Assembly: GCA_963812015.1 (NCBI GenBank)
Contig: CAWETI010000002.1
Span: forward strand, 800,001-864,000
DNA from: an uncultured delta proteobacterium
GTDB taxonomy: Bacteria; Desulfobacterota; Desulfobaccia; Desulfobaccales; 0-14-0-80-60-11
Length of the DNA: 64,000 nt
Direction of reading: 5' to 3'
The translations under genes were made by a program, and so were the position numbers. This document shows positions 151 through 18,800 of the stretch, piece after piece. The notes beneath the pieces are model-generated. The model was not told where the DNA came from, made no database searches, and saw nothing but the letters and a program-made list of their open reading frames with translations. The first letter of the stretch is position 1. Each line of letters starts with the position of its first letter.

Positions 151-1209
151 ATGAGACGACCCAAGGGGCAGGTGAAAGGCGGAGAAGATTTATTTGTCGG
201 GATCGACCTACATAAGAACAGGTGGCACATAACCGTTCGGACTTTTGACGTAGAGGTGTTCAGCGCCAGCATTCCAGGGACCTGGGAGTCTTTGCCCCGA
301 GTTTTAGCTCGCTATCCCGGCCATCCCCTGCAGGCGGTCTATGAAGCCGGATATTTTGGATTTCGGCTTCATGACCGCCTGGTGGATCATGGCATCCCCT
401 GCCTGGTTACTCCCCCCAGTCTGCTTCCCCAAGAATACGGCAACCGGGTCAAAACCGATCGGCGGGACAGCAGTAAGCTGGCGCATCTGTTGGCCAAAGG
501 GATGCTGAAGCGGGTGTGGGTGCCCAGTGAAGAGGAACTTTATCACCGCCAGGTCATCCGTCGCCGCCGGCAGTTAGTCAGGGATCGGGTGCGGACCCAG
601 AGTCGCATCAAGGCAGAGCTGAGGTTTTACGGAATTCGCCTAGAAGAACCACGAGGCAGATGGACCCAACTATACTGCGAGACTCTGCGGAGTATCAGGT
701 TTGGGAACCGCTGGATGCAGGAGAGCTTCAACCGCCTGCTGGAGCAGTATAAATTTTTAAGTGCGCAGATCGATAAACAGACCCAACTGCTGCGGGAATT
801 ATCCGAGACTGCTCTGTACCAGGAGCGAGTGGAGATTTTACAGAGCATCCCCGGTATCGGGATAATCTCTGCGATGGAACTGCTGCTGGAACTGCAGGAC
901 GTGTCCCGTTTTCGACGGGCGGAACAACTGGCGGCTTACGTGGGTTTAACCCCGTCCCAATACTCCAGTGCGGATAAGGTGCGCATGGGCCGTATCACCG
1001 GCATCGGCAAGAATACCCTCCGGGCCATATTGGTGGAAGCCTCATGGAAACTGATCACCAAGGATCAGGTGATGCGCCAAAAGTACGAAAGGATCAAGAT
1101 CCGTTCGGGAGGGAAGCGTGCCATTGTCGCCATTGCCCGCACCCTGCTGCTGCGCATGAGGCGCATGTCGCTTGATGGTCAGGCATACGCCTTTCAACTG
1201 GCAGCTTAA
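151..1209 (+). CDS. IS110-family transposase/recombinase (DEDD RuvC-like N-domain + Transposase_20 C-domain)
   Basis: FVGIDLHK, YEAG and KTDRRD DEDD residues; C-terminal IPGIG..., AYVGLTPSQYSS (catalytic Ser region), GRITGIGKNTLRAILVEA, RAIVAIAR; SD GGAGG upstream. Confidence 0.96.
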   Translation: MRRPKGQVKGGEDLFVGIDLHKNRWHITVRTFDVEVFSASIPGTWESLPRVLARYPGHPLQAVYEAGYFGFRLHDRLVDHGIPCLVTPPSLLPQEYGNRVKTDRRDSSKLAHLLAKGMLKRVWVPSEEELYHRQVIRRRRQLVRDRVRTQSRIKAELRFYGIRLEEPRGRWTQLYCETLRSIRFGNRWMQESFNRLLEQYKFLSAQIDKQTQLLRELSETALYQERVEILQSIPGIGIISAMELLLELQDVSRFRRAEQLAAYVGLTPSQYSSADKVRMGRITGIGKNTLRAILVEASWKLITKDQVMRQKYERIKIRSGGKRAIVAIARTLLLRMRRMSLDGQAYAFQLAA

Positions 1210-1503: not shown

Positions 1504-2004
1504 TCAAGGGGCGATCTTAGGGGCGGGGCAGGGAGCAGGGAGACCCCAATCCTGTAATTTGGCGAGGATGCAGGCCAGCAGCAGGGGCAGTATTGCTTGC
1601 AAGAGCTCAGAGAGCTCCAGGCCGGTTTCGATGATGTGGGGCTGGATACCGATGAGGCAGATTTCCCGGGGGGCGACGTCGAGGAGTTGGGCCGCGGCCA
1701 GCACGTCTATCAGGCCCAGATGATGCAGGGAATCTTTGCTGGTGAACAAGGCCGGAATCTCCTGATTTTCCAGGACGCCGATGCAGCCGGGCTCCTTGCG
1801 GAAATTTACCGCGTCGACAAAAATGACCCGGTCCCGGCCCTCGATGTAAGGGAGCAGGTCCAGACCGGCGGTGCCCCCATCCACGATTTCGAGGCCGGGG
1901 GGCATCAGGTAACGCGCCTCCAGGGCCCGAATGGCGTGGATACCTATGCCTTCGTCCCGGAGCAGGAGGTTGCCGAGACCTATTAAGGTTAGTTTTATTT
2001 CCAA
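1504..2004 (-). CDS. hybD: Hydrogenase maturation endopeptidase (HybD/HyaD family)
   Basis: GLGNLLLRDEGIG, VDGGTAG, FVDAV, SLHHLG motifs; last gene of the hyb operon. Confidence 0.93.
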   Translation of the reverse strand: MEIKLTLIGLGNLLLRDEGIGIHAIRALEARYLMPPGLEIVDGGTAGLDLLPYIEGRDRVIFVDAVNFRKEPGCIGVLENQEIPALFTSKDSLHHLGLIDVLAAAQLLDVAPREICLIGIQPHIIETGLELSELLQAILPLLLACILAKLQDWGLPAPCPAPKIAP

Positions 2005-2129: not shown

Positions 2130-3830
2130 TTACAGAGCTTTGACCTCAACCATGGACTGGCCTTTGGGGTCCACCAAATGGATGGCGCAGGCCAGGCAGG
2201 GGTCAAAGGAGTGGACGGTGCGGACCACCTCCAGGGGTCGGTTGGGGTCGGCCACCGGGTTGCCCACCAGGGAGGCCTCGTAGGGGCCCAGAGCGTCGTT
2301 CTGGTTGCGGGGCCCGGAGTTCCAGGTGGAGGGCACCACGCACTGGTAGTTCTTGATCTTATTATCTTCGATGATCACCCAATGGGACAGGACGCCCCTA
2401 GGCGCCTCATGGAAGCCGAAGCCCCGGCTTTCGCCCGGCTTCATGGGGTATTTGTTGCAGATGGCGAGATCGCCCCTGGCGATGTTGTCCACCAAGGCCT
2501 GCCACTGGGTGTTGAGCTCATCATAAAGCACGGCGCAGCGGATGGCCCGGGCGGCGTGGCGGCCGATGGTGGAGTGGAGCGCCTCGAGCCCCACCTTGGC
2601 GCCAGCCAGCTTGCTAACGGTATCCAGGGCCAGAGTGGCGTACTTCTTGGTGGGCTCGTGGCCGGCGACGAACATGCAGAGGACGTTGGCCAGGGGGCCC
2701 ACCTGGGCCGGCTTGTCATAGAAGGACGGGGCCTTGACCCAGGAGTACTTGCCGTTGTCCTTGAAGCCGGTGTAATTGGGATCAGTGGATTCGTCATAGG
2801 GATGCTTGGTCCAATCACCCTTGTACCAGGAGTGCTTAATGGACTCCTTGACGCCCTCCCGGAAGTAGTCGTCGTGGTAGGAGGTGATGGGTTTGAAGCT
2901 CTTGAGGTCGGCGTTGGCGATGTAGCCGCCGGGCATGTTGAAGACCGTGCCCTTGGTGTCCATGGGCATGTCGGGCACCGACAGGTAATTGGTGACGCCG
3001 GCGCCGTACTTGGTCCAGTCGGCGTACATGGCGCCCACGGCGCAAACGTCCGGCAGGTAAACGTTCTTGACGAAGCCGCCCACTTCGTCGATGAGGGTCT
3101 TGATGTAATAGAGCCGCTCCATGTTGAGGGCGGAGGGGGAGTCCAGATTGATGGCGGTGGAGACGCCGCCGGGCACCAGGTTGGCGACGTGGGGCGTCTT
3201 GCTGCCCAGGATGGAGACGATCATGTTGGCCTTACGCTGGTAGTCCAGGGCCTGGAGGTAGTGGGCCACGGCCATAAGGTTGACCTCCGGGGGCAGCTTC
3301 ATGGCGGGATGGCCCCAATAGCCGTTGGCGAAGATGCCGAGCTGGCCCGAGGCCACAATGGCCTTGAGCTTGTCCTGGACGGCCTTCATCTCCTGGTAAC
3401 TGTTCCGGGGCCAGGAGGACAGACTGTCGGCCAGTTGGGCCGCTTTCTTCGGGTCGGCCTTGAGGGCGGAGGTGATGTCCACCCAGTCCAGGGCCGAGAG
3501 ATGGTAAAAATGCACCATATGGTCATGCACGGCGTGGGCGGCGATGATCAGGTTGCGAACGTACTGGGCGTTGAGGGGCACTTCCATCTTCAGGGCGTTC
3601 TCTATCGCCCGCACCGAAGCCAGGGCGTGGACCGTGGTGCAGACGCCGCAGATGCGCTGGGTGAAGGTGGGAGCATCCCGAGGGTCGCGGCCCTGGAGGA
3701 TGACCTCGATGCCGCGCCACATCTGGCCCGAGGACCAGGCGTTGGTGACTTTGCCGCCATCAACTTCACATTCTATGCGTAGATGCCCTTCGATCCTGGT
3801 TATGGGGTCGACGACAATTCTTTTAGCCAT
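2130..3830 (-). CDS. hybC: [NiFe]-hydrogenase large subunit, group 1c (hydrogenase-2 type), Cys-type (not NiFeSe)
   Basis: DPITRIEGH, RICGVC (L1), EAPRG, DPCLACAIH (L2) followed by a cleavable C-terminal tail; start taken at ATG 3830 (ORF track starts at GTG 3836). Confidence 0.96.
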   Translation of the reverse strand: MAKRIVVDPITRIEGHLRIECEVDGGKVTNAWSSGQMWRGIEVILQGRDPRDAPTFTQRICGVCTTVHALASVRAIENALKMEVPLNAQYVRNLIIAAHAVHDHMVHFYHLSALDWVDITSALKADPKKAAQLADSLSSWPRNSYQEMKAVQDKLKAIVASGQLGIFANGYWGHPAMKLPPEVNLMAVAHYLQALDYQRKANMIVSILGSKTPHVANLVPGGVSTAINLDSPSALNMERLYYIKTLIDEVGGFVKNVYLPDVCAVGAMYADWTKYGAGVTNYLSVPDMPMDTKGTVFNMPGGYIANADLKSFKPITSYHDDYFREGVKESIKHSWYKGDWTKHPYDESTDPNYTGFKDNGKYSWVKAPSFYDKPAQVGPLANVLCMFVAGHEPTKKYATLALDTVSKLAGAKVGLEALHSTIGRHAARAIRCAVLYDELNTQWQALVDNIARGDLAICNKYPMKPGESRGFGFHEAPRGVLSHWVIIEDNKIKNYQCVVPSTWNSGPRNQNDALGPYEASLVGNPVADPNRPLEVVRTVHSFDPCLACAIHLVDPKGQSMVEVKAL

Positions 3831-3854
3831 ATTCACATTCTCCTTGACGCAAGG

Positions 3855-5000
3855 TTAGGCGTGCTCAGCCTCGGGCAGCACCGGGAATTTTTTGACGAAA
3901 TAGAGGTAGGCCATGAGTTCGATGGCCACGATTCCCAGGGTGATCAAAATTTCCGGGACGGCCGGGAAATAGTGCCACCCGGGCCCGGGGTTAAAGCCGA
4001 TGAGAAAGGTGTCGAACCGATAGAGGGAGCCTGCCAGGAGCAGGGAGCAGGACCCCAGGAACAGGAAGCGGAGGTCGCTCCTGAGCGAGGGGCTGACCGC
4101 GATCAGGACGGGCACCAGGTAAAAGAGATTCTCCAGGATGAACATGAAGCTCAGGAAGCCGCTGGTGAAGACCGGGGCGCCCCGGAACAGGAGGTCGACA
4201 AAACGGAGCACCAGGTAAGCTGCCACAACCCAGGCCATGACCCCGGTAAGCTTGGAGAGCATGGGAGTCTCAAAGGGTCGCTTGAAGGCGACCGAGGAGA
4301 GGATGGATTCGAAGGCCGTCACCCCAAAGCCCATGGCAATCGCCGAAAGCAGGAAGAACAGGGGCAGAAGGCTGGTCTGCCAGAGGGGCGAAAGCTTGTA
4401 GCCGGCAAGGACCATCAGGGTCCCCAGGGAAGACTGGTGCATGGTGGGCAGCAGGATGCCCACCGCGGCGATGACCGGCAGCCAGCGCTCCAAGCGCCGG
4501 CGGGTCTCCACGGCTTTGGCGTTGCCGGGGTAGCCCTCCAGAATGGTGGGCAGGAGTTCGATCCACAGGACCACCACGTAGGCGGCGATGCAGAGGGCTA
4601 CTTCCACCAGGACGGAGCTGAAGTTGGCCTGCCAGGGTAGGAAGAGCTTATAGCCGTTCCAATAGCGCCCGATGTCGAGGAAGATGGCCAGGCCCGCCAA
4701 ACTGTAACCGAAGACGCTGGTGAGTACGGCGGAGCGCACTACGGGGTGATACTCCCAGCGGTTAAAGACATAGATCAGGATGGCCGTGGCGTAGCCGCCG
4801 CAACCCAGGGCCGTGCCCACCAGGACATCGTATGTGATCCAGAGGCCCCAGGGATAGCCGTCGCTCAGGTTGGTGACTGCGCCCAGGCCGGCCATGAAGC
4901 GGTAGAGGATGAGGATGACCGCCACCACGGCCAGGGCCGCCAGGACCAGGAAGGGCTTGGTTACGATTTTGGGATGCAGATTAAGGGATTCGTCAGCCAT
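3855..5000 (-). CDS. hybB: Hydrogenase-2 integral membrane subunit (NrfD/PsrC family)
   Basis: GLGAVTNLSDGYPWGLWI, LPTMHQSSLG, multiple TM segments; lies between hybA and hybC. Confidence 0.93.
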   Translation of the reverse strand: MADESLNLHPKIVTKPFLVLAALAVVAVILILYRFMAGLGAVTNLSDGYPWGLWITYDVLVGTALGCGGYATAILIYVFNRWEYHPVVRSAVLTSVFGYSLAGLAIFLDIGRYWNGYKLFLPWQANFSSVLVEVALCIAAYVVVLWIELLPTILEGYPGNAKAVETRRRLERWLPVIAAVGILLPTMHQSSLGTLMVLAGYKLSPLWQTSLLPLFFLLSAIAMGFGVTAFESILSSVAFKRPFETPMLSKLTGVMAWVVAAYLVLRFVDLLFRGAPVFTSGFLSFMFILENLFYLVPVLIAVSPSLRSDLRFLFLGSCSLLLAGSLYRFDTFLIGFNPGPGWHYFPAVPEILITLGIVAIELMAYLYFVKKFPVLPEAEHA

Positions 5001-5012
5001 AGTGCCCTCCGT

Positions 5013-5978
5013 TCAAGGTAAATCCTGGTTGGTGGTATTTTTGTAGATCAGGTAAAAGAGGCCGCCGAGCAGGACGTAGGGGACGATCATGCCCTTATAG
5101 AGGGTATGATAGAGGGTCTCGGACTGGCTGGCGGTGGATGTAGGTGGCAACTGTGGTAGGTCCAATTTGTTGAAGGGGACGTTGGCCAACATGAGGACCT
5201 GGGTGCCGCCGCCTTCCCGGGCGCCATAGATGTGATTGATATACGGCGTCACCTTACGCTGGGTTTTGTCGGGCGAATCCACCAAGCGTAAGGGGTAATC
5301 GGCCATCTGCCCCGTGGTCAAAGACAACCGCCGTTTGGCTTCCTTCAGGAGATCCTGAACGTTGCCGTAGATCGAGGCGCCGGTGGGGCAGAACTCGCAG
5401 CAGGCCGAATAGCTGCCCTGGGCGATGCGATGGGAGCAAAGCTGGCACTTTTTGATCTGGGGAAAGGCTTTGTCCCACTCAAACTTGGGCACATTGTATG
5501 GGCAGGCTACCTGGCAGTATCGACAACCGATACAGACGTCCTTGTTATACGTAACGGCTCCGGTGTTGAGATCTTTGCTGAGGGCTCCCACCGGGCAGGC
5601 GGAGGTGCAGGAAGGATCGACGCAGTGCATGCAGAAGCGCCGGACGAAGGAGTAGCCGTTAATCGTCCGGTCTTTGACTTGGCCGGTGCCGTTGGTGTAA
5701 AGTTTAACGATGTTGTAGGTCTTGGCGGACAGGTCTATGGGATCGTCCCAGACGTTGTTGGGGTGGTAGTGGTCAGGGGGCAGATGGTTGTATTCTTTAC
5801 AGGCCGCCATGCAAGCCTTGCAGCCAATGCAGAGCGTGGCGTCGTAAAGAATACCCACGGCCTCGGGGAGGCGGGGTATGGGCTCTCGGGCTGCGGCCGG
5901 TACCGGGCTGAGACTGGACGCCAGCACCAGGCTCCCACTCGCGGAAACCTTGAGGAAATCTCGTCGGCTGAGTCCCAT
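5013..5978 (-). CDS. hybA: Hydrogenase-2 4Fe-4S electron-transfer subunit
   Basis: Tat signal SRRDFLK; CIGCKAC, CMHCVDPSC, CIGCRYCQVACP, CQLC motifs; C-terminal TM helix. Confidence 0.93.
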   Translation of the reverse strand: MGLSRRDFLKVSASGSLVLASSLSPVPAAAREPIPRLPEAVGILYDATLCIGCKACMAACKEYNHLPPDHYHPNNVWDDPIDLSAKTYNIVKLYTNGTGQVKDRTINGYSFVRRFCMHCVDPSCTSACPVGALSKDLNTGAVTYNKDVCIGCRYCQVACPYNVPKFEWDKAFPQIKKCQLCSHRIAQGSYSACCEFCPTGASIYGNVQDLLKEAKRRLSLTTGQMADYPLRLVDSPDKTQRKVTPYINHIYGAREGGGTQVLMLANVPFNKLDLPQLPPTSTASQSETLYHTLYKGMIVPYVLLGGLFYLIYKNTTNQDLP

Positions 5979-5981
5979 AGT

Positions 5982-7178
5982 TTAGTCCTTCTTGGTCTCG
6001 GCGCCGGGGTCCGATTTTTCTTTGCCCAGCTTCATGGCGGCAACCGCGCCGGCGCCCACAGCCAGGCCGGCCAAACCGGCCGCCAGGCCCACGGCCGCGG
6101 TAGTAACGCCATGCCCCTCGGGGGCCTGAATGGGCGCAAAGGCGGTGGGCGGAGTCAGGCGCAGCTCCCCGCCCCCTACCCGGACTTTACCCTCCTCCAA
6201 GGGTAAACCCGCCGGGGTGAAATACGCCAGGCTGGCCTGTTCAGGTATGGGCTTGGTAAAGCCCACGCCCTTCTCGGAGCAGCCGAAGCAGGGGCAGCCG
6301 GTGCCCACCGGCCAGCTCCGGGGACCGACGTCGCCGAAGAGTTGCTCGGGGCAGTTGTTATAGGTCTCAGGCCCCTTGCACCCCAGTTTGTAGAGACACC
6401 AACCCCGACGATGGCCGTCGTCGCCGAACTCCAGGGCAAAGCGACCGGCGTCGAAATGCGCCCGCCGCTCGCAGCCCTCGTGGATGAGGCGGCGATAGGC
6501 AAATTTGGGCCGGGCCTTATCGTCCAGCTCGGGCAGTTTTTTGAAGGTCAGGACATAGAGCACGGTGGACAGGAAGTTATAAGGGTTGGGCGGGCAGCCC
6601 GGGATATTGATCACGGTAAATTTGCCGCCCAGGGCCTCGGCGGTGGACACGGCGCCGGTGGGGTTGGGAGAGGCCGAGGGGATGCCGCCCCAAGAGGCAC
6701 AGGAGCCGATGGCGATCACGGCCATGGCCTGGGGGGCGGTCTCTCTCAAGATGTCCAGCACCGGCCGGCCGCCGATCTGGCAGTAGATACCGCCGTCCTT
6801 GGTGGGAATAGAGCCGTCCGTCACCAGGATGAACTTACCCTGGTTTTCCGCAATGGATTTCGCCCTGGCTTCTTCCGCCAGGTGGCCCGAAGGCGTGCTC
6901 AGCGTTTCGTGATAATCGAGGGAGATGAGATCGAGGATCAGCTGCTCCACCGTGGGGTGGGTGGAGCGTAGCAGGGTTTCAGTACAGCCGGTGCACTCCT
7001 GGCCGGAGAGCCAAATGACCGGCGGACGCTTGAGGTTGGCAACTGCTTCGGCGATTTTGGCTCCCATGCCCAGGGGCAGCCCCATGCCCACCGCCGCAAT
7101 GGTGCAGAACTTCAAAAAATCTCGCCGCGATACCATTCCTAAATGCCTGGGGACCAGATCTGATTCGTGATCCTTCAT
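5982..7178 (-). CDS. hybO: [NiFe]-hydrogenase small subunit
   Basis: Tat signal SRRDFLK; QECTGC, GSCASWGG, PGCPP, HEGCERR, WCLYKLGCKGP, CFGCSE; C-terminal TM anchor; SD GGAGG. Confidence 0.95.
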   Translation of the reverse strand: MKDHESDLVPRHLGMVSRRDFLKFCTIAAVGMGLPLGMGAKIAEAVANLKRPPVIWLSGQECTGCTETLLRSTHPTVEQLILDLISLDYHETLSTPSGHLAEEARAKSIAENQGKFILVTDGSIPTKDGGIYCQIGGRPVLDILRETAPQAMAVIAIGSCASWGGIPSASPNPTGAVSTAEALGGKFTVINIPGCPPNPYNFLSTVLYVLTFKKLPELDDKARPKFAYRRLIHEGCERRAHFDAGRFALEFGDDGHRRGWCLYKLGCKGPETYNNCPEQLFGDVGPRSWPVGTGCPCFGCSEKGVGFTKPIPEQASLAYFTPAGLPLEEGKVRVGGGELRLTPPTAFAPIQAPEGHGVTTAAVGLAAGLAGLAVGAGAVAAMKLGKEKSDPGAETKKD

Positions 7179-7509
7179 AGATCCTCCATTGTAATAGGTG
7201 AGGTCGGGAGTTTTTCCCTCCTTGACGCCTTGTTAGCGCGGATGCACCGGTTGAACCTTATGAATTTTTCTCTCCTAAGATCCTCCTCAAGTTGAGGTTG
7301 GTCATACCTTAAAACCCACGGGCAAACAAATTTCAACGATCTGTGCTTGGCGCTTCCGGTGGTCTACAGATTTTGGCAGTTGCCAGATACCCCGCCCTAC
7401 AGAAAGCGGCGCTCGTCTGACTTAGGCCCAAGGTTGGAATCTGCCGTTCTGAGAAGGGCAGGGAATGGCGGCGAGGTTAAAGAAGGGAATGAAACGGGGA
7501 AAACCGTAC

Positions 7510-7635
7510 TTAGATTTCTTTACTCCCAGGCGCCCCTGCGGTTCTCAGTCGGGCTGATGGCGAGAGCCTTACCAAGGCCTCTCGGTAAACCTGGGTTCAG
7601 GATCTGCCGGAACCGGGGAAGAGCAAACGTAGCAC
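7510..7635 (-). CDS. Leader uORF A: MLRLLFPGSGRS then UGA (7599-7597); 41 aa if UGA is read as Sec
   Basis: SD AAGGAGGT (7652-7645), GTG start at 7635, UGA at codon 13, frame stays open 28 more codons to TAA 7512-7510; homologous to uORF B. Confidence 0.55.
7561..7584 (-). promoter_or_regulatory. SECIS-like hairpin of leader A
   Basis: CGAGA-G-GCCTT-GGT-AAGGC-TCTCG; GGU apical loop begins 23 nt after the in-frame UGA. Confidence 0.55.
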
Positions 7636-7669
7636 CTGGGAATCACCTCCTTTGTTGAGGATGGGAAGC

Positions 7670-7699
7670 ATTATAAAACCGAGTGCCAAACAAATGCAA
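7670..7699 (-). promoter_or_regulatory. Sigma70-type promoter driving leader A (towards hyb)
   Basis: Minus strand TTGCAT-N18-TATAAT, about 17 nt upstream of the SD. Confidence 0.65.
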
Positions 7700-7845
7700 T
7701 AGTTATTTCACAAAGGGTTATAGGCTTCCCCCTGCCATCGGGTTTTGGGACAGTTATGCAACCAGCCTGAGGGTGGCTGTTCAAATGCCTTCCTTTTCAC
7801 GGGGAGGGAGGAACCAGGTTGGCTGATGAGCAGACAAGAAAATTG

Positions 7846-7874
7846 TTGAATGGCATATCCTATCACCCTACAAT
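7846..7874 (+). promoter_or_regulatory. Sigma70-type promoter driving leader B
   Basis: TTGAAT-N17-TACAAT, 16 nt upstream of the SD. Confidence 0.65.
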
Positions 7875-7906
7875 GAAGCGAACTTTAGAAAAGGAGGTGG
7901 TTCCGG

Positions 7907-8044
7907 GTGTATCGGCCGTTTATTCCCATTAAGGTGAAATCCTGAAGCTCAGGCGACCGCAGAGCCTTGGTAAGGCTCTTGCTAGTATCCAGACTGGTAA
8001 GGGGTGGGGCGGATCACCTGGGATCGAGGTTTCCTTCGGATTAG
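7907..8044 (+). CDS. Leader uORF B: MYRPFIPIKVKS then UGA (7943-7945); 45 aa if UGA is read as Sec
   Basis: SD AAGGAGGT (7891-7898), GTG start at 7907, UGA at codon 13, frame open 32 more codons to TAG 8042-8044; homologous to uORF A. Confidence 0.55.
7959..7982 (+). promoter_or_regulatory. SECIS-like hairpin of leader B
   Basis: AGAGCCTT-GGT-AAGGCTCT (8-bp stem, extendable by GC/GC); GGU loop at 7969-7971, 23 nt after the UGA. Confidence 0.55.
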
Positions 8045-8403
8045 CTGCACAAGTCCGGCGTTTCCTTCTGTAAGGTAAGACCTCCCCAAGTTACTATCCC
8101 TGTTAATCCCATCCAACCTGTGGTCTCTAATTCAATAACTACCTGATTAATTTTGATATTTCTGCGTTGCGGCGCGCTTGCCTAGTGCTGCGCCACGATG
8201 GAAGAAGACTGCCCGCAATGGTCGGCCCATCGCCCAGATGGACAAAACCTTCGTGGTTTCCTTGAACGGGCCATCGACATGGTCCATTTCCGGGATCAGC
8301 AGGTCACGTCTTCCCTTGCTTTGGCTTGTTAAGGTGAGGCTACACTAAACCACAAAGGAGTATTAATGGCAGTGATTGTCAGACAACCAAGCAAGGAGAA
8401 GGA

Positions 8404-8715
8404 ATGAAACAACATCAGGATTATCCCGGCAGACGAGACTTTATTAAAACTGCGGCCATGACGGTGGTCGGGGCGGCGTTGCCCTTGAACCTGGCCCAGG
8501 CGCAGAAGTTTGCCGTGGATCATTTGCAGGTCTGGTCCTGCGGGGGCCTGGCCGAAGCCATGATGCCCGCCAATCAACTCTATGAGCAGAAAACCGGGGT
8601 CAAAATCAGTTATACGGGGGCCTTTGCCGCGGCCTTGGGGAAGTCCCTCCTGGGCAGCGCCCAGACCGAGGGGCCGCGACCACATTTCCGCCATGGAAGT
8701 GGGGGGGTGGTTTGA
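8404..8715 (+). pseudogene. Truncated Tat-exported substrate-binding protein (ModA/WtpA-like fold, SCGG motif)
   Basis: GRRDFIKT Tat signal; LQVWSCGGLAEAM...YEQKTGVKISYTG resembles a ModA-type N-terminus; resemblance ends near 8670 and the ORF is far too short for a full SBP. Confidence 0.6.
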
Positions 8716-8815
8716 AGGTGCAATTTATTTTATTGTGGGGTGCGGCAGGCGGCGTAATTCGCCATCGGCCATATCCCTGGCGTGGTTAATTTTTCATTGC
8801 GTCCAACCTGGCAAG

Positions 8816-8965
8816 GTGGTCTTTTAATGAGCTGGCCTTGCCTGAGTCCGGAGCGACTCCGCAGCCCGGGTGGCTGTCAAGCTTGGCTATCAGAACGTTT
8901 ACCGTGATCCCCACGGCTTTCCGGAATGGCAGAAAAGAGGGTTGCCGGAGGCCAAAGGCTCCTGA
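8816..8965 (+). pseudogene. C-terminal remnant of a rhodanese-domain selenoprotein with a UxxxxU motif
   Basis: Frame reads VVF*-U-AGLA-U-VRSDSAARVAVKLGYQNVYRDPHGFPEWQKRGLP; TGA codons at 8828 and 8843 occupy the CxxxxC positions of the neighbouring rhodanese (IYCNGPYC); TAA at 8825 sits where Tyr is expected. Confidence 0.75.
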
Positions 8966-8999
8966 TCACAAGGGGAGAAAATGCTGAGGAGGAATAACG

Positions 9000-9752
9000 A
9001 TGTTCGGATATCGGAGAAAATTCAATTGGACCATGGCAGCAGTATTATTATTTCTACTTTGTCTGCTTGTGCCTGCACCAGCGCCGGCGCAAATGCCACA
9101 GACAGTTGCGCCGAAGGAACCTGCCGGGGTCGGCGTAGAGATTTCCACGGAGGAATTGAAGCAGATTCTGGCCAACAAATCCGAACCCGTGGTTGACGTG
9201 CGCACATCCAAAGAGTATGCCATCGCCCATATCCCCGGCAGCATCCATATCTATGAAAAGGATATGGATAAACTGATGCAGCTCCTCCCCGACAAGAAGG
9301 CGGGCATGGTAATTTACTGCAATGGGCCGTATTGCCACAAAGTCAAGCGAGTGGCCGAACAACTGTTCACGAAGGGCTACACTAACATCAAACGCTACCA
9401 GATGGGCATGCCGGTTTGGAGGGCGTACGGCAATTCCGTGCAGACGGATATGGCAGGTTGTAAATACATCTTTCCAAAGGACAAAACCGCCGTATGGGTT
9501 GATGCCCGCCCCAAGGAGGAATTCGCCAAAGGGACTGTCCCCGGGGCGGTGAACGTCCAGGCGGGAGAGGTTAAGGTGGCGAATGAAGATGGGCGTCTGC
9601 CTTACACCGACAAGGGGACGCGGATCGTGGTCTTTGCCGACAATCCGGAGATGGCCCGGAAAGTCGCGGAGGAGATCGCCCACACGGCTTTCTGGAACTG
9701 CAGCTACTTCGGGGGCCCATTCGCAGACCTGAGGCAGGCCGGCCTGTGGTAA
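9000..9752 (+). CDS. Exported tandem rhodanese-domain protein (sulfur/selenium transferase-like)
   Basis: Signal peptide; VVDVR...EYAIAHIPGS, active-site loop IYCNGPYC, GYTNIKRYQMGMPVW; second degenerate domain WVDARP...GTVPGAVN. Confidence 0.88.
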   Translation: MFGYRRKFNWTMAAVLLFLLCLLVPAPAPAQMPQTVAPKEPAGVGVEISTEELKQILANKSEPVVDVRTSKEYAIAHIPGSIHIYEKDMDKLMQLLPDKKAGMVIYCNGPYCHKVKRVAEQLFTKGYTNIKRYQMGMPVWRAYGNSVQTDMAGCKYIFPKDKTAVWVDARPKEEFAKGTVPGAVNVQAGEVKVANEDGRLPYTDKGTRIVVFADNPEMARKVAEEIAHTAFWNCSYFGGPFADLRQAGLW

Positions 9753-10782
9753 AGGGACGTACAACGCACTCCCCACGCAGCCGACATGGCGCTATCTATC
9801 CCATCATTCCAGGGAGGCAGCCGTATCGATGTTTTTAATATTCGTTTTAAATCCATGCTCGATAGACACAATTCAGAATGCGATTGGCCCGGTCTGCCTG
9901 AAGGTTTATGCTTTCCGCCTCCTTGAAGCAATTTCTTGATTTTTCGGGCTGGGCCATTCCGCACCCAATATTGCCTTATACCGAAACTAATCTGATTTTT
10001 ATTTCTGACAGAGTCGACATTTTGCCTACAAGCTACAGTGTCGATCACTGCTATATTTCCGCACTTCTCCTCCCGGCATTTGGCTTGCTGATATGCTCAC
10101 CATATATTGACCTCTGACCCAACCTCGCTCTCTATCTCCCTCAACCTAATAACCCATGGGTCGAAGCGTTTAGGGGCTCCAGAAGCATGTACACGCTTTT
10201 TAGGGGCATTTTAAGAGGCAGGATGTTTGTCTTCTATAGATCCCAGGGCCAGCTAAATTTTGCGCTTGAAAATTATGGGGTGGGTCCCTTGAGCAGGGGG
10301 GATTGGCGCCATCCCGATCCGGTCTGGAGCCAAGTTTTTTGATGTCGTGATGAGATCATCATGGGCCCCCGGGGAGGTCTCCCCTCATCACCAGGTTTCA
10401 GAGTACCAACAGCTCCATGGGGTGTCTGAAAGTCGGCCACCAATTCCCCCCCAAAAAAGATTTTTGGGTTTGAAATTTCTGGGAGGTGGGGGTATAGGGG
10501 GGGGTCTTTTTCTCACAGCCACCCCCAATTATCACGAAAAACATTTTTGGGGATTTTGTCCGTGCCACCCTTTAGAAGACAATGGGGGCTATGGGACCCA
10601 ATCCCGGGGTTTGCCTCTCGAGGCAGAAAATCCTCCAGAATGGCTGCGGCGCCGGGTGAGGGGAACCGCACCGAGCAGTTTGTGCATGGTGCACGCCGGG
10701 GGGCGGGCAAGGTTATGGTACCCCATTTGGTACCCATGAACAATAATGGGGTTAGCCTTATTAGTTAACCCCTTGTTTTCCT

Positions 10783-11758: not shown

Positions 11759-12467
11759 GAGCAGGGAGTGATCAGGTTAACTATTGATAATTATTAACTT
11801 ATAATCTTAAAAGGGGCATTCCTGGTCTGTAGTGAACCACCCAAGCGACCTTAGATTTAGCAAATAAGTTCAATTGGCATGTCTTTAATGTACGATTATG
11901 TATGGTGATCTATGGCCTTAATTACAAATAAGTCACAAAACTATTCACCGCTTCTCCTTGATCAATGCCGTTAACTGGTCAGGACTGTCCCCCCTTGAAC
12001 CTAGTGCTATCCGGTAGACAACGCTTGGATTTAAAATAAAAAGCCCTGGGTATTGGCAGAGTTGATCAGAAAAATATTTAGTTACTGCTATGACTGGGAA
12101 CTTATCAAGCCTCCAAAAACTTTCCATATCCAGAGGATATCCATCCTTCTTGACCTGGAAAAACTCCATATGTTCCCGCCGGTAATCTGGGGTTCCCTTA
12201 TCACCGACGGCTGAAATCTTCCTCCCCACAAGTGCCCGCACAAGATAAGGAGTTCATATCCGCAATTTTTCATGCCTCGTCGATAAGTGCCGAGTTTGGC
12301 AAGATATCTGCAATTTTTGCTTCCCATTCCGGGGGGGAAATTTTATGGTAACGCACGCCCTGGGAATAATCTTTTTAATCCTATAAGGATAAGGGCAAGA
12401 GGGGGGCACGGCTCGGTGCCCAGCGGAGCAGAAGACATTTAGCTGCACCTATCCAGTGGATCAGTCA

Positions 12468-15081: not shown

Positions 15082-15816
15082 TCACCGGCCCCAGGCCACT
15101 GAAAGCCAGGCTTCTTTTAGGCGGACCGAGACCGCCGGACAGGTTTCTCGGCCCCCCGGAAAAGTCCCGTCCGGGTCTGGATTTCCCAGGCATCCGTGCC
15201 AGAGATAGCCGTGCTCTCCTGGGCCGGCAAATTGGACCTCCACCTGCCGGGGGCTCAGAAAGTGAAAACCACAGCCCCAAGCCTTCACCACCGCCTCTTT
15301 AACCGACCACAATAGGGCTGCGGCCTCTTCCCGGTTCCCCGCGGTCAGGGTAACCGCTGCCTGCCACTCCGATTCCATGAAGACCCGCTGGTGCGGATAG
15401 GACCCGGCGAATTCCCCGGGGGCGGCTGCATCCAATCCGAGACCCCTCTCAGACCTGCCTACAGCCGCCCACAGCCGTCCGGCGCTCCAACTAAAGGAAA
15501 GGGCCGGGCCGACGACAGCGGCGTCCAGCCAAATCTGGGGCTTGCCCAGGGGGTCCCGCCTCAGGGTCAAGTCCGGCAGCTTCCGCTCCAGCAAGTGCTG
15601 CGCCAGAAAGCGGGCCAGGGACTCCTTTGCCGCCTGCCGGTGACAGCGGCCTTCCCATCCCGGCGCGCAGGAGCGCAAAGCCGCGGGCGTTGAAGCCACC
15701 AGGGCCGGTTCGCCCCGGGGAGAAAAAAATACCGGCGCCACCAGCGTGGGTCTTTGGTTTGGACCGGCACTGAGGCCTCCGGCCTGGGCCGGGATTCTGT
15801 TCTGAAGCGGTCTCAT
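15082..15816 (-). CDS. 4'-phosphopantetheinyl transferase (Sfp-type)
   Basis: DPLGKP, LSFS, GLGLD, WSVKEAVVKA; ATG at 15816 overlaps the PKS stop (ATGA). Confidence 0.82.
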   Translation of the reverse strand: MRPLQNRIPAQAGGLSAGPNQRPTLVAPVFFSPRGEPALVASTPAALRSCAPGWEGRCHRQAAKESLARFLAQHLLERKLPDLTLRRDPLGKPQIWLDAAVVGPALSFSWSAGRLWAAVGRSERGLGLDAAAPGEFAGSYPHQRVFMESEWQAAVTLTAGNREEAAALLWSVKEAVVKAWGCGFHFLSPRQVEVQFAGPGEHGYLWHGCLGNPDPDGTFPGGRETCPAVSVRLKEAWLSVAWGR

Positions 15817-18800
15817 TCCGAAAAGGAGTGCAGCCTGAGCCCCCGCACCTTCATGAGGGGCTGGCCGTCGGCGTCCAGGGCCTGGGCATCCCAGGTAAAT
15901 CCATTGGAGTCCTCGTCCTGCAAGCGGGCCTCCAGGATCACCCGCTCTTGATTCCGGCAACGGCGGGTGAAGGACATGGCCTCGATACGCACCGGGATGA
16001 AGGTGCGCTCATCCTCCTCATTCCGCATGACAATGTAAAAATTGGTCATCTGCATGAGGGCCTCCATCACGTAAGGGGAATACTGGAGACTGGGAGCCTG
16101 CAGGTGGGAAAAATCCATCTCGGTCCGGTACGCAGCCGCGCCCCGCACTAGGCCCGGCCCGGAGCCGTCCAAATGCTCTATTACCCGATATCTCCCCTGC
16201 ATAGCGGTCCGTTGGTCATACCAACCGATAATTTTCTCCAACTCCTCCGTCCTGGTGTCCAGGTCCTCGAGCTTCAGTGGAAATCCCGGCAGATTGGGCC
16301 AGGCAGGCGGCGCCGCCCCGCTTAAAACCACTTGGGCCCGATAGTTGATGTCCTTCTTGTCCAGCACTTTCCCGGTGGGGGAGAGGAGGGGGGACTCCAT
16401 GGTGAGTTGGCACACCACCTCACCTCCAGGCTCCCGGAGGCGGTGGCAAGTGATGATGGAATTGATCGCTACCTCCGGCGGCACTTCGATGGCCTCCAGA
16501 AACTCCACCTCCCTGACCTCCCTGACCTCCAGGTAAGGGTAAAGCAGGCGGGCGGCCTCCATGAAGGTTTCCAGGGCCATGATGGCGGACACCAAGGGGT
16601 GTTTCAGAAACTTGAAAGGCTTATGGTCGGCGATCCACAGGTCCCGCTCCCGGGAGAACACCCGGGAAGCCTGCAGCACGCCCGCCTGGAGATCCAGATA
16701 GGAGATGGCGTCAATTAGGGGGAATTGTTCCGGCGCAAAGACCATGGCGCCGTCCTGGAGGCCCGGTGGGGCTGGTTTCGGGTCGGCGGTATCCAGCCGG
16801 AGATGCTTGATCTCTGGGAGCCGGGACATAAACATGACCCACACGTCCTGGGGACCGGTCAAAAAAAGCTCCCGGCAAAAGAGTTCCTTTAGTTCCTGGG
16901 GTTCCAGATATCCGACCCCCATCTTCTCCAGCAGGCGACGGAGGTCCGGGTTATCGGCCATGCCGCCGCCGCTGATAGGCGGCAGGCTCAGGGCCTTGCA
17001 CAGGATAGCCGGGTGTTGCGCCTTAATCTGACTCAACAGGGCCGACATCATCCGGTTGGCGGCGGTGTAATTGGTCTGGCCGCGGTTCCCCTGGATGGCC
17101 GCAACCGAAGACAGGGCCACCACGAACCGCAACCCGGCTTCGGAAGCGGCGTTGAACAGGTTCCAGGCGCCTTTGAATTTGACATCCAGGACTGCGGCCA
17201 CCTCCTCGGGATTAAGGTGGGCCAGCAGCTTGTCCCGCAACACCCCGGCCCCATGGACCAGGCCATCGATTCGGCCGTAACGCCGGATAATTTCGTTGAC
17301 TGTCTCCTGCACCTGGTCCGGATACGTCACATCACAGGAGAGATAAGCCACCTCCATGCCGGCGGCCCGCAACTCTTCCAGGCTCTGCATAACCTGCCGG
17401 GCCTGAAACAGGCGGGCCAACTCCTGCTGCAGAGCCTCCTGGGAAATATCTGGTCTTTGCTGCATGATCTGCCAGCGCAAGGCCTTTTCCGAGGGTTCCT
17501 CAGCCAGCAGCAGTTTGCTGATTTCTTCGTCCAGGTCGATGGCGGTCCGTCCCAGTAAGACTACCTGGGGATTGAAAGTCGCCAAACATTCCACCAGATG
17601 GGTGGTGATGCCGTAGCCGCCCCCGGAGAACACCAATACGTCACCACGGTTCAATGCCAGCGTGGGTTCGCTCATTCCTTCCACCAGGACCACCCGCCCT
17701 GCGGTGGTCATGACCTGCCCCTGGCGGTACCAGGTATCGATGACCGGCTGCTGCGGGTCCAGCGCCTGGCGCAAGGCCGGCAGCAGTTTGGTCTCCCGGT
17801 CCAGCCGCACCGTGCGGAAGAGCAAGTCGGGGTACTCCAGGGCGGCGCTCAGGAAGAGTCCCAAAAGGCCCTGGGATAACAAGTGTTCCTCTCCGGCCTC
17901 GTCCGGGGAACGATGCAAGGCCAGGGCAAATTTTTTCCGAGACGCGGCCCCCAGGGATTGCAGCAGCGGGAAGCAACCTGCGAGCAAACAGGGCAGGTCA
18001 TCCATTCCCTGGAGCCTGCAGGTGAAGCTATCATCCAGGAGTATTACCAATCCGGCCAGGGAGGGGTCTGCGCTCAGCTTGAGGGCCGCCTGGCGAGCCC
18101 CTTCCGGCTGGCGCAGGTCAAACCCCGTGCCTTCGGGCCCGGCCTCCAGAAAAGCCAGGGACTGGACGGCGCACCCCCACTCCCGGCGGAATAGTTCGCT
18201 GACCTCTTCCAGCCACGCCGAACTGCCGCCGGGGTAAAGGATAGCCACTGTATCCGACGACGTCAGTTCAAGCGGCTGGGGGCTGAAATCGGGCAAAGGC
18301 ACCGGCCCAAAGACCACCCGCTTGAGGGGCTTCACCTGGCCCAAAGGCGCGTCCACGGCTGCTCCGGAGGCTGCCGGGGCCGCCTGGGCCCCGGCCGGCG
18401 GCGTTTCCCTGCCTTCACCTCGGGCCACCACCTCGGAGATGCGGGAAGCCAGCTCCCGGACGGTGCGGACATCCAGAAAGTCCTCCAGTCGAATTTCGAT
18501 GCCAAAACGGCTCTCCGCGGCGTCTATGATCACGGGAAAACGGCTGGAGCGAATGGCCAGGTCGGATCGCAGGTCCATATCCGGCTCAATCTCATCCCTC
18601 TCGTACCCGGTGGCCTCCATGATGAGGCCGATCACCTCTTCGAGATAGTCGGCGCCCGCTTCCGGTAAGGCCCGGGGTGGCGAGGGAGAAGGTTCAACGG
18701 CTGGCAATGGGGCTGCCGCCAGCGTCGTCGCCGGGTTATTGGATGGAACCACCGGGGGGGTCCAAGCAGCCTGCCGTGATTGCAAGAGCTGCTCCAGGTT

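Follow-up and report, generated by a model that had tools for sequence, protein, structure and literature searches.

In attenuators such as trpL and hisL, a short open reading frame (ORF) in the 5′ leader is decoded in dependence on one charged tRNA, the position of the ribosome selects between alternative pairings of the transcript, and the regulated genes serve the supply of the amino acid that is sensed. Attenuators of this kind, based on leader peptides of amino-acid operons, are described in the introduction of PMC3892789. Here we report on two leaders, A and B, which by our model would share all of these properties while responding to a different signal. They lie back to back on opposite strands in a 64,000-nucleotide (nt) stretch of DNA from an uncultured delta proteobacterium (contig CAWETI010000002.1 of assembly GCA_963812015.1, positions 800,001 to 864,000). 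We refer to this stretch as the window and to the source genome as G000, in which the window is C2:800001-864000. Each leader consists of a Shine-Dalgarno (SD) sequence, a GUG start, a mini-ORF of 12 codons that ends with UGA at codon 13, and a hairpin of the type of a selenocysteine insertion sequence (SECIS). Judged from sequence, these leaders are quite probably ribosome-based sensors of selenocysteine (Sec) supply that switch on a selenium-starvation regulon.

The differences from trpL and hisL lie in the input, the output and the regulon. The sensed codon is UGA, which needs SelB and a SECIS, and the decision is between recoding and termination rather than stalling at a sense codon; a C-rich tract is found in place of an intrinsic terminator; and the regulon also includes cysteine (Cys) backups. 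Other systems resemble the leaders in single features. In prfB, termination by release factor 2 (RF2) at an early in-frame UGA competes with a +1 frameshift, and RF2 is what is sensed; competition between RF2 and another decoding event at an early UGA would also be the sensor here, but the alternative event would be SECIS-directed Sec insertion. The tnaC leader ORF ends with UGA, has a Rho loading site beside the leader stop, and works through an arrest peptide and free tryptophan. As in tnaC, the behavior of the ribosome at a stop would decide the access of Rho, but the peptides of the present leaders vary, and Sec-tRNA and SelB would provide the signal. The 5′ leader of Escherichia coli selAB is said, in work by Thanbichler and Bock from 2002, to contain a SECIS-like element at which binding of SelB hinders initiation. 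There, as here, a SECIS-type hairpin ties selenium genes to the Sec machinery, but the selAB element is not known to have a translated mini-ORF or in-frame UGA before the hairpin.

Transcription of fdhF(Sec) in Treponema primitia depends on selenium by translational coupling at a UGA/SECIS site, according to PMC3892789. This is similar in that an outcome set by selenium at a UGA-SECIS site decides downstream transcription; in T. primitia, however, the site is inside a selenoprotein gene and selenium turns that gene on, whereas here a dedicated leader mini-ORF precedes genes that are mostly not selenoprotein genes. The paper describes attenuation based on a rare amino acid as unreported in nature. 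In Methanococcus, Cys isoforms and candidate selenium transporters are controlled by a protein regulator, HrsM or LysR_Se (PMC5322559 and PMC11097638). The logic of that regulon is much the same, but there a transcription factor acts on DNA, whereas here the ribosome would read an RNA leader. In the searchable literature, subscription-only papers being outside the scope of that search, no UGA/SECIS leader ORF was found described; the SECIS elements mentioned in a 2026 preprint on intergenic features are all within selenoprotein genes. A UGA and a SECIS hairpin do not occur together with a dedicated leader ORF in any of these closest systems, and SelB/SECIS recoding of a stop codon is an input for ribosome-mediated attenuation that is undescribed in the searchable literature. 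How bacteria sense selenium and choose between Sec and Cys enzymes is an open question, the only known regulator being the LysR-type protein of methanogens; Lin et al. (2015; PMC5322559) call the selenium regulatory network not understood.

A first-pass annotation of the window had proposed A and B as homologous leaders that sense Sec. All of the parts that it listed were seen in the sequence as described: the SD, GTG, 12 codons and TGA at codon 13, the GGT hairpin loop 23 nt past the TGA, the open frame beyond the TGA, and a promoter in front of each leader. The promoter of leader B was found by a promoter scan and that of leader A by eye; the consensus scan did not return the latter because its −35 hexamer fits the consensus at only 3/6 positions. 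An equivalent promoter, TTGnnn-N17-TAnAAT, precedes three more copies of the leader in G000. Two parts had been overlooked, a long-range helix, P1, and the C-rich tract that follows the stop of the read-through frame (the second stop). Leaders A and B align with a mean column identity of 75%.

The leader is present in more than these two copies. G000 has five distinct ones, A and B plus three that are diverged: copy C is located upstream of a TIM-barrel gene and selD, copy D upstream of an HdrD-like Fe-S gene, and copy E in front of a group with MauE/DoxX, rhodanese and MvhD genes. With all five copies as the basis of a covariance model, A was matched at E 4e-29 and B at E 7e-38; the search of G000 with this model gave seven strong matches and one more at E 0.36, and outside G000 there were 55 matches, spread over 32 of 60 related genomes (33 of the 61 searched, G000 included). 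By this model the leader occurs in 32/36 genomes of the same family, 0/14 of the sister family, and 0/10 of other families of the phylum. We also scanned one genome per species (185,579 species) with a pattern in which the SD, GTG and hairpin core were imposed and the stop codon was left free. Of the 65 matches, 59 were in Desulfobaccales-type (delta-proteobacterial) metagenome-assembled genomes (MAGs), which are labeled Desulfobaccales, Desulfobacca, Syntrophobacterales, Syntrophales, Desulfobacterales, Thermodesulfobacteriota, Deltaproteobacteria or Proteobacteria. The other six had different spacings and TAA, TAG or no first stop, and were taken as chance matches; five were in unrelated taxa and one in a delta-proteobacterial MAG. 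The 60 copies of the alignment set pooled with those from the pattern scan gave 84 distinct leaders, all confined to Desulfobaccales-type genomes, and no cultured host was evident among the MAGs that carry one. When the Rfam covariance models were applied to window positions 6500-9500 at E up to 10, only unrelated families were returned, at E 0.19-7 and far below their gathering scores. The annotation had known of no described family with this architecture, and none came out of this Rfam search or of the searchable literature.

The mini-ORF was strongly constrained in start, length and stop. In the 60 aligned copies the start codon was GTG in 58, ATG in one and TTG in one; the length was 12 codons in 59 and 10 in one; and the first stop after the SD and start was TGA in 60/60. 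The 59 delta-proteobacterial matches of the pattern scan, for which no stop had been imposed, had TGA in 59/59, after 12 codons in 58 and nine in one. Thus the proposal that UGA is fixed at codon 13 was borne out, and no homolog in the family had UAA or UAG at that position. The 33 nt from GUG to UGA varied widely in sequence and were constant in length, 82 of the 84 pooled leaders having 12 codons; both length variants differed by whole codons. As to the residues listed as conserved (R3, P7, K/R11 and S12), the penultimate K or R was found in 81 and the final S in 73 of the 84 leaders, with A following the UGA in 73; P7 was not kept family-wide. The conservation of R3, and of P4 in most copies, is at least partly an RNA constraint, and need not involve selection on the peptide, because both lie in AUCGGCC, which pairs with the 3′ strand of P1.

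Stop codons within the body of the mini-ORF were absent from frame 0 (0/60) and occurred in the other two frames in 41/60 and 16/60 copies. After the UGA, frame 0 remained open for 27-43 codons (median 32) in 60/60 copies, and frames +1 and +2 ran for fewer than 27 codons in 45/60 and 29/60; the read-through frame in the 59 scan matches was 29-39 codons. From these frame statistics we infer that the mini-ORF is translated. In the selD-type leaders the spacer is 2 nt shorter and the hairpin is read as GLGKAL instead of ALVRL, and the frame is still open. Because the frame is open although the register of the hairpin differs, passage of the ribosome, not the peptide, appears to be what is conserved. 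A conserved arrest peptide of the tnaC type was not found, residues 5-10 being free to vary; as in trpL, the 5′ leader contains a short ORF equipped with an SD and a start of its own, and a promoter is found 20-30 nt upstream. The penultimate residue influences termination at UGA in E. coli, and by analogy the K/R-S-UGA-A context may favor clean termination.

Bacterial SECIS elements are stem-loops a short, fixed distance 3′ of a UGA, with G in the apical loop. For comparison with the leader hairpin, genuine sites in G000 were taken from tblastn with Cys homologs, which aligned TGA to Cys at 11 sites: three in HdrA, four in MvhD/FlpD, two in HdrD-like proteins and two in [NiFeSe] large subunits. 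The selenoproteome of G000 is large, and Cys paralogs of each family are found elsewhere in the genome. The loops of the hairpins at the 11 sites are GGC, GGU, GGA, AGGU or UGGAU, closed by U-A or G-C. By our own reading, the GG is at +24/+25 past the UGA in six of the seven sites that were indexed and at +21/+22 in the seventh, C2:7446; C2:996147, a near-identical twin of C2:7446, was read likewise though not indexed. The leader hairpin, CCUU-GGY-AAGG, has GG at +24/+25 in 71/84 copies. By sequence, the leader hairpin is indistinguishable in loop and spacing from the SECIS elements of its own genome, and its earlier description as SECIS-like was apt. The selD of G000 is itself a selenoprotein gene (VRAAG-U-AAKIPPG; L003 300-370 (-), C2 near 1,059,500) and belongs to the operon behind leader C; because selD carries Sec, the sensor would control a gene whose product needs Sec.

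Helix P1 is formed by the SD-start spacer plus GUG and a G-rich strand ~100 nt downstream; in our own reading of individual copies it reaches into the first codons of the ORF. The support for the hairpin and P1 was determined in the 60-sequence alignment, which was fitted to the covariance model and so favors structure, by comparison with controls in which the 3′ partner was slid by 1-3 columns. In the alignment 92.7% of cells were paired, versus 34-66% in the controls; 10 pairs changed on both sides, versus 2-7; and the covariation score was 0.266, versus at most 0.103. RNAalifold applied to the same alignment independently recovered the cores of both helices. Covariation in the hairpin is illustrated by pairs 98/112 (AU 32, GC 16, GU 11) and 103/107 (UA 56, GC 3), and in P1 by pair 31/163 (AU 21, GU 11, UG 11, GC 5, CG 4). 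The minimum free energy (MFE) folds of both leaders are closed by P1, with -54.7 kcal/mol (z -1.95) for A and -57.0 kcal/mol (z -2.89) for B.

The region past the second stop has a biased composition. A value of (C-G)/40 of at least +0.15 was found in 88% and 95% of 59 leaders for composition windows starting 0 and +20 past the second stop. For the other 21 window starts the share was at most 24% (the value at -40), with the exceptions of 39% at -20 and 58% at +40. By composition, a C-rich, G-poor site is found beside the leader stop, as in tnaC, and the G-rich 3′ strand of P1 precedes it. Pairing between the G-rich strand and the C-rich tract, calculated with redefined segments, had a mean of -41.6 kcal/mol for cognate and -37.4 kcal/mol for non-cognate combinations; 81% of the leaders were better than the non-cognate median and 37% were in the best tenth.

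To identify the genes behind the leaders, ORFs on the strand of the leader and 90 aa or longer were collected from about 5 kb downstream of each of the 60 leaders, and 133 were scanned against Pfam. Six leaders had no such ORF, being at a contig end or followed by opposite-strand ORFs only. Among the 54 that remained, 32 preceded groups of the selenium-handling type: MauE/DoxX with rhodanese, often together with a YedF-like protein (13 leaders); YedE, TusA-DsrE (YedF-like) or Se_S_carrier (8); a TIM barrel with SelD and/or a phosphomutase-like protein (7); and rhodanese without MauE, which includes B (4). Redox or molybdopterin genes followed 17 leaders: MvhD clusters (7), HdrA-like with MvhD (5), HdrD-like, one with DedA (2), [NiFe] hydrogenase, which includes A (2), and a molybdopterin fragment (1). 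HGD-D followed four leaders and a porin one. Linkage to selenium genes or Cys paralogs, which had been predicted, extends through the family: 53/54 leaders precede selenium-handling genes, Cys paralogs of selenoenzymes, or the HGD-D family, which is tied to selenium neighborhoods. A UGA with a SECIS in front of selD, yedE, yedF-like and Se_S_carrier genes corresponds to the regulatory codon of a trpL-type attenuator.

The redox enzyme genes behind the leaders are uninterrupted and of the cysteine type, and in G000 Sec versions also exist of HdrA, MvhD/FlpD, the HdrD-like protein and the hydrogenase large subunit. None of the 11 Sec sites is within about 30 kb of a leader; only the Sec-type selD follows one, leader C. 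The hydrogenase beside leader A had been called Cys-type, in agreement with the C-terminus of its large subunit. The locus of leader B had been described as oxyanion-binding/rhodanese; a rhodanese gene is present, but the binding-protein gene is only a remnant of 103 aa. YedE, YedF and DUF3343 (Se/S carrier) are among the selenium-linked genes of Lin et al. (2015), and an HGD subunit is among the neighbors of such genes (both in PMC5322559). When Methanococcus maripaludis is depleted of selenium, its Cys isoforms of hydrogenases and HdrA rise, as do yedE (+5.3 log2) and a molybdate-type binding protein (+5.8 log2), according to PMC11097638. The leader regulon is the same set of functions as this response to selenium depletion.

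We consider it likely that the leaders are recoding-gated attenuators, in which one UGA-SECIS site in a dedicated leader measures Sec insertion and switches a whole regulon. The sensing step is well supported by the anatomy, conservation, covariation, SECIS match and gene association; Sec insertion, the polarity of the output and the role of Rho are what we infer beyond it. The strong SD and GUG would load a ribosome onto the 12-codon mini-ORF, and at the UGA, in the presence of the SECIS hairpin, Sec-tRNA(Sec)/SelB would compete with RF2. With SelB-Sec-tRNA available, Sec would be inserted and the ribosome would travel ~30 codons farther, through the hairpin and the G-rich strand of P1, until read-through ended at the second stop on the edge of the C-rich tract. 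With no Sec supply, RF2 would terminate at the UGA. The output would be as in trp-type attenuation, the outcome of translation selecting between pairing strands, with a Rho site replacing the terminator. At low Sec, ribosomes on the mini-ORF would occupy the 5′ strand of P1, the G-rich strand would mask the C-rich tract, Rho would be blocked, and the genes would be ON. At high Sec, the G-rich strand would be translated, the C-rich tract would be bare, Rho would terminate, and the genes would be OFF; in a leader that is not translated, P1 would be the resting fold. The genes switched on would be those for selenium uptake, selenophosphate synthesis, and the Cys versions of HdrA, MvhD, the HdrD-like protein and [NiFe] hydrogenase. 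This model would account both for a read-through frame without stops across the G-rich strand and for the location of the second stop at the edge of the C-rich tract. The polarity was assigned mainly because of the nature of the regulon.

Several observations weigh against this interpretation or reduce the force of the evidence for it. In the intervals from leader A and leader B to their genes, the scan for intrinsic terminators found none on the right strand; the main genes begin 200-450 nt beyond the leaders. Among the helices of a trp-type scheme, 1:2 (P1) shows covariation, 2:3 appears in the energetics only, and 3:4 was not found. With the first definition of the segments, the 2:3 pairing between the G-rich strand and the C-rich tract gave a mixed result, with 32% of leaders in the best tenth and the MauE-type leaders worse than non-cognate combinations; this pairing is a tentative part of the model, its modest signal being largely composition. 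The UCCUGAA block around the UGA is conserved at the nucleotide level, and a constraint on the RNA may therefore account in part for the fixed TGA. Relatedness among the copies makes the counts overstate their independence; we judge the independent subfamilies to number ~8-12. A selB match was found in every leader-bearing genome, but all 61 genomes searched had one (57 above the family cut-off), and restriction of the leader to Sec users is therefore a test without power in this sample. The Rfam bacterial SECIS models had no match in positions 6500-9500 at E up to 10; according to the 2026 preprint, most bacterial SECIS elements are missed by these models.

The same parts can also fit a model of opposite polarity, in which the genes are ON when Sec is plentiful. 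Termination at the UGA would let P1 close and leave the C-rich tract free for Rho, turning the genes OFF; read-through would open P1, and the tract would be masked, or shielded by the ribosome as at tnaC. In favor of this model, P1 has the best support of the helices and closes the MFE folds of A and B, and the second stop adjoins the C-rich tract, just as the stop of tnaC adjoins its Rho utilization (rut) site; no computed result fixes the polarity. We nevertheless regard the reversed polarity as unlikely: the regulon consists of Cys backups and uptake genes, classes that rise upon selenium depletion in M. maripaludis, and induction of selenium-free backups when Sec is plentiful would make little sense. 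In addition, the very strong SD would keep the start region mostly occupied by ribosomes, and P1 would seldom close. It is more doubtful still that the leader is an operator for SelB, which, bound with or without Sec-tRNA, would alter folding or Rho access, UGA decoding not being the signal. The resemblance of the hairpin to genuine SECIS hairpins would suit such an operator, and the SECIS-like element that Thanbichler and Bock (2002) are said to have described in the selAB leader would be a precedent, but the fixed 12-codon frame, its freedom from in-frame stops, the open frame of 27-43 codons in 60/60 copies and the placement of the second stop would all be left unexplained.

The mini-ORF statistics also bear on two other explanations. 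If the leader were a structured RNA, a riboswitch or small RNA sensing a selenium compound or some other signal, the SD, GUG and UGA would be incidental. Such an RNA would account for the covarying structure, for the conserved single-stranded blocks (AAAUCCUGAAG and the G-rich strand), and, by pairing, for R3 and P4 of the "peptide". It would not be expected to avoid stops in one frame specifically, or to leave the 33 nt between GUG and UGA free in sequence while keeping their length in 82/84 leaders, with exceptions by whole codons, and we consider it very improbable. Least credible among the alternatives is a gene that encodes a small selenoprotein (40-56 residues, M-x11-U-x27-43), having its own function and merely located near selenium genes. 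It would require just the continuous frame with an in-frame UGA and SECIS hairpin that is observed. This candidate was rejected because conservation does not extend to the peptide: positions 5-10 are free to vary, subfamilies differ in what follows U, the selD-type leaders read that part in another register, and no redox motif surrounds U. The occurrence of five distinct copies per genome, a constant 200-450 nt upstream of co-directional operons, is also leader-like. The interpretation of the leaders as sensors of Sec supply, as the first-pass annotation had proposed, is supported by every comparative test available within reach of computation.

If this is true, the question of selenium sensing would be answered for one clade by direct reading of Sec supply at the ribosome, and a first cis-acting selenium sensor would be known in bacteria. 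The long-observed switch of anaerobes between Sec and Cys isoenzymes would gain a mechanism, and attenuators would be known to sense one more input, stop-codon recoding, as a natural counterpart of the engineered attenuators using unnatural amino acids that are mentioned in PMC3892789. The leaders could also serve as a genomic flag, marking as candidates for selenium uptake or trafficking the MauE/DoxX-rhodanese pairs, the TIM-barrel protein with SelD, HGD-D-like proteins and DedA. According to PMC11097638, a transporter dedicated to selenium is not known.

A different UGA leader (class 2) was found ~170 nt upstream of yedE in G021 (L181), G028 (L182) and G036 (L183), which are three of the four own-family genomes without a leader of the class described above (class 1). 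It consists of AAGGAGGUGGGGAG-AUG, 10-11 codons, UGA-NNN-UGA, a hairpin GCAAGGGUAGUUACCCUUGC, and then CCAUCUCCCC, a 10-nt anti-start sequence complementary to the start region of the mini-ORF. The yedE SD is about 40 nt beyond CCAUCUCCCC, and the frame after the second UGA is open across the yedE start. Judged from these sequences, the same architecture in two unrelated sequences suggests that the design recurs. Constrained folding of class-2 leaders with the ribosome parked at the UGA or beyond left the pairing of the yedE SD unchanged and gave no evidence on polarity. In the fourth genome, G032, of the own family (f1), nothing was found in the 422 nt available upstream of yedE. The 700 nt in front of yedE were also scanned, crudely, for a short ORF with SD and start that ends in TGA, in 11 sister-family (f2) and two other-family genomes in which yedE is perhaps not the first gene; there was no candidate in 12/13. 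A 14-codon ORF ending with TGA in G041 (f2) was followed by a weak fold and was taken as chance.

Table 1. Positions of leaders A and B, their parts and the genes behind them in the window, and of the genuine Sec sites in G000
Feature	Position (strand)	Description	Basis
Leader A promoter	7670-7699 (-)	-35 TTGCAT 7699-7694, 18-nt spacer, -10 TATAAT 7675-7670	By eye
Leader A SD	7643-7652 (-)	AAGGAGGTGA	Block nearly invariant in 60-sequence alignment
Leader A mini-ORF	7597-7635 (-)	GTG 7635-7633, 12 codons MLRLLFPGSGRS, UGA 7599-7597	
Leader A SECIS-type hairpin	7562-7583 (-)	GAGAGGCCUU-GGU-AAGGCUCUC; GGT loop 7573-7571 starts 23 nt past TGA; GG at +24/+25	
Leader A helix P1	7524-7641 (-)	UCCCAGGUGC (7641-7632, spacer + GUG) with GCGCCUGGGA (7533-7524); encloses both mini-ORF and hairpin	MFE fold and covariation
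Leader A read-through frame	7510-7596 (-)	28 codons to TAA 7512-7510	
Leader A C-rich, G-poor tract (rut-like)	7450-7509 (-)	After second stop; (C-G)/40 +0.23, +0.40, +0.25 in windows starting 0, +20, +40 past second stop	Composition
[NiFe] hydrogenase small subunit	5982-7178 (-)	Downstream of leader A	
4Fe-4S subunit	5013-5978 (-)	After hydrogenase small subunit	
NrfD-type membrane subunit	3855-5000 (-)	Leader A operon	
Hydrogenase large subunit, Cys-type	2130-3836 (-)	Leader A operon; C-terminus DPCLACAIH	
Hydrogenase maturation protease	1504-2004 (-)	Leader A operon	
Leader B promoter	7846-7874 (+)	TTGAAT-17-TACAAT	Promoter scan
Leader B SD	7891-7899 (+)	AAGGAGGTG	Sequence and 60-copy alignment
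Leader B mini-ORF	7907-7945 (+)	GTG 7907-7909, 12 codons MYRPFIPIKVKS, UGA 7943-7945	
Leader B SECIS-type hairpin	7959-7982 (+)	GCAGAGCCUU-GGU-AAGGCUCU(U)GC; loop 7969-7971, 23 nt past TGA	
Leader B helix P1	7899-8025 (+)	GGUUCCGGGUG (7899-7909) with CACCUGGGAUC (8015-8025)	Covariation and MFE fold
Leader B read-through frame	7946-8044 (+)	32 codons to TAG 8042-8044	
Leader B C-rich, G-poor tract	8060-8130 (+)	After second stop; (C-G)/40 +0.20, +0.33, +0.17 in windows starting +20, +40, +60 past second stop	Composition
SBP_bac_11 binding-protein remnant	8404-8715 (+)	First gene past leader B; twin-arginine translocation (TAT) signal	Profile positions 1-47 of 227
Double rhodanese protein	9000-9752 (+)	Downstream of leader B	
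11 Sec sites	G000:C3 702-710 kb, 2,010-2,022 kb, 371 kb; C2 7.4, 967, 996 kb	TGA aligned to Cys	tblastn

Conserved sequence was also seen outside the parts listed in Table 1. In the MauE-type leaders (L048-L062) the 5′ untranslated region is conserved far past the sensor, in blocks such as UUUCGGCCUACCGACGUAAACGCC and CCCAGACCUUACCCGCC about 250 nt after the element; this suggests further structure between sensor and gene in the MauE-rhodanese operons. Leaders B and D have in common a conserved block, GACCUCCCCAAGUU, past the second stop (window 8080-8100; L009 1165-1195 (-)), and leader D carries CCACCUCCUUU, complementary to its own SD. These anti-SD-like stretches of leaders B and D may be part of the expression platform.

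The SBP_bac_11 family is that of molybdate/sulfate-type binding proteins. In the remnant region (8404-8827) the frame breaks with an in-frame TGA at codon 104, and the next stop is 14 codons on. An ORF of 352 aa beside the hydrogenase operon (151-1209 (+)) may encode an IS110-type transposase.

Leaders A and B are part of an exact inverted repeat of 4,066 bp, window 6001-10066 being identical to G000:C2:292294-296359. The duplication spans both leaders, with the binding-protein remnant and rhodanese gene on one side and almost the entire hydrogenase small-subunit gene on the other. The small-subunit ORF of the second copy continues into sequence that is unrelated, giving 411 aa that end differently, and is not followed by a large subunit. 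The repeat is either a recent segmental duplication or an assembly artifact; the contamination estimate of the genome is 5.72%.

Short repeats at window 10048-10612 and 12085-12308 have several diverged copies elsewhere in the genome, one with 92% identity at C2:1665358 and others with about 75% at six places. A single ORF of 2,661 aa at window 15813-23798 (-) has polyketide-synthase-like motifs (ketosynthase, acyltransferase and carrier), as recognized by eye only.

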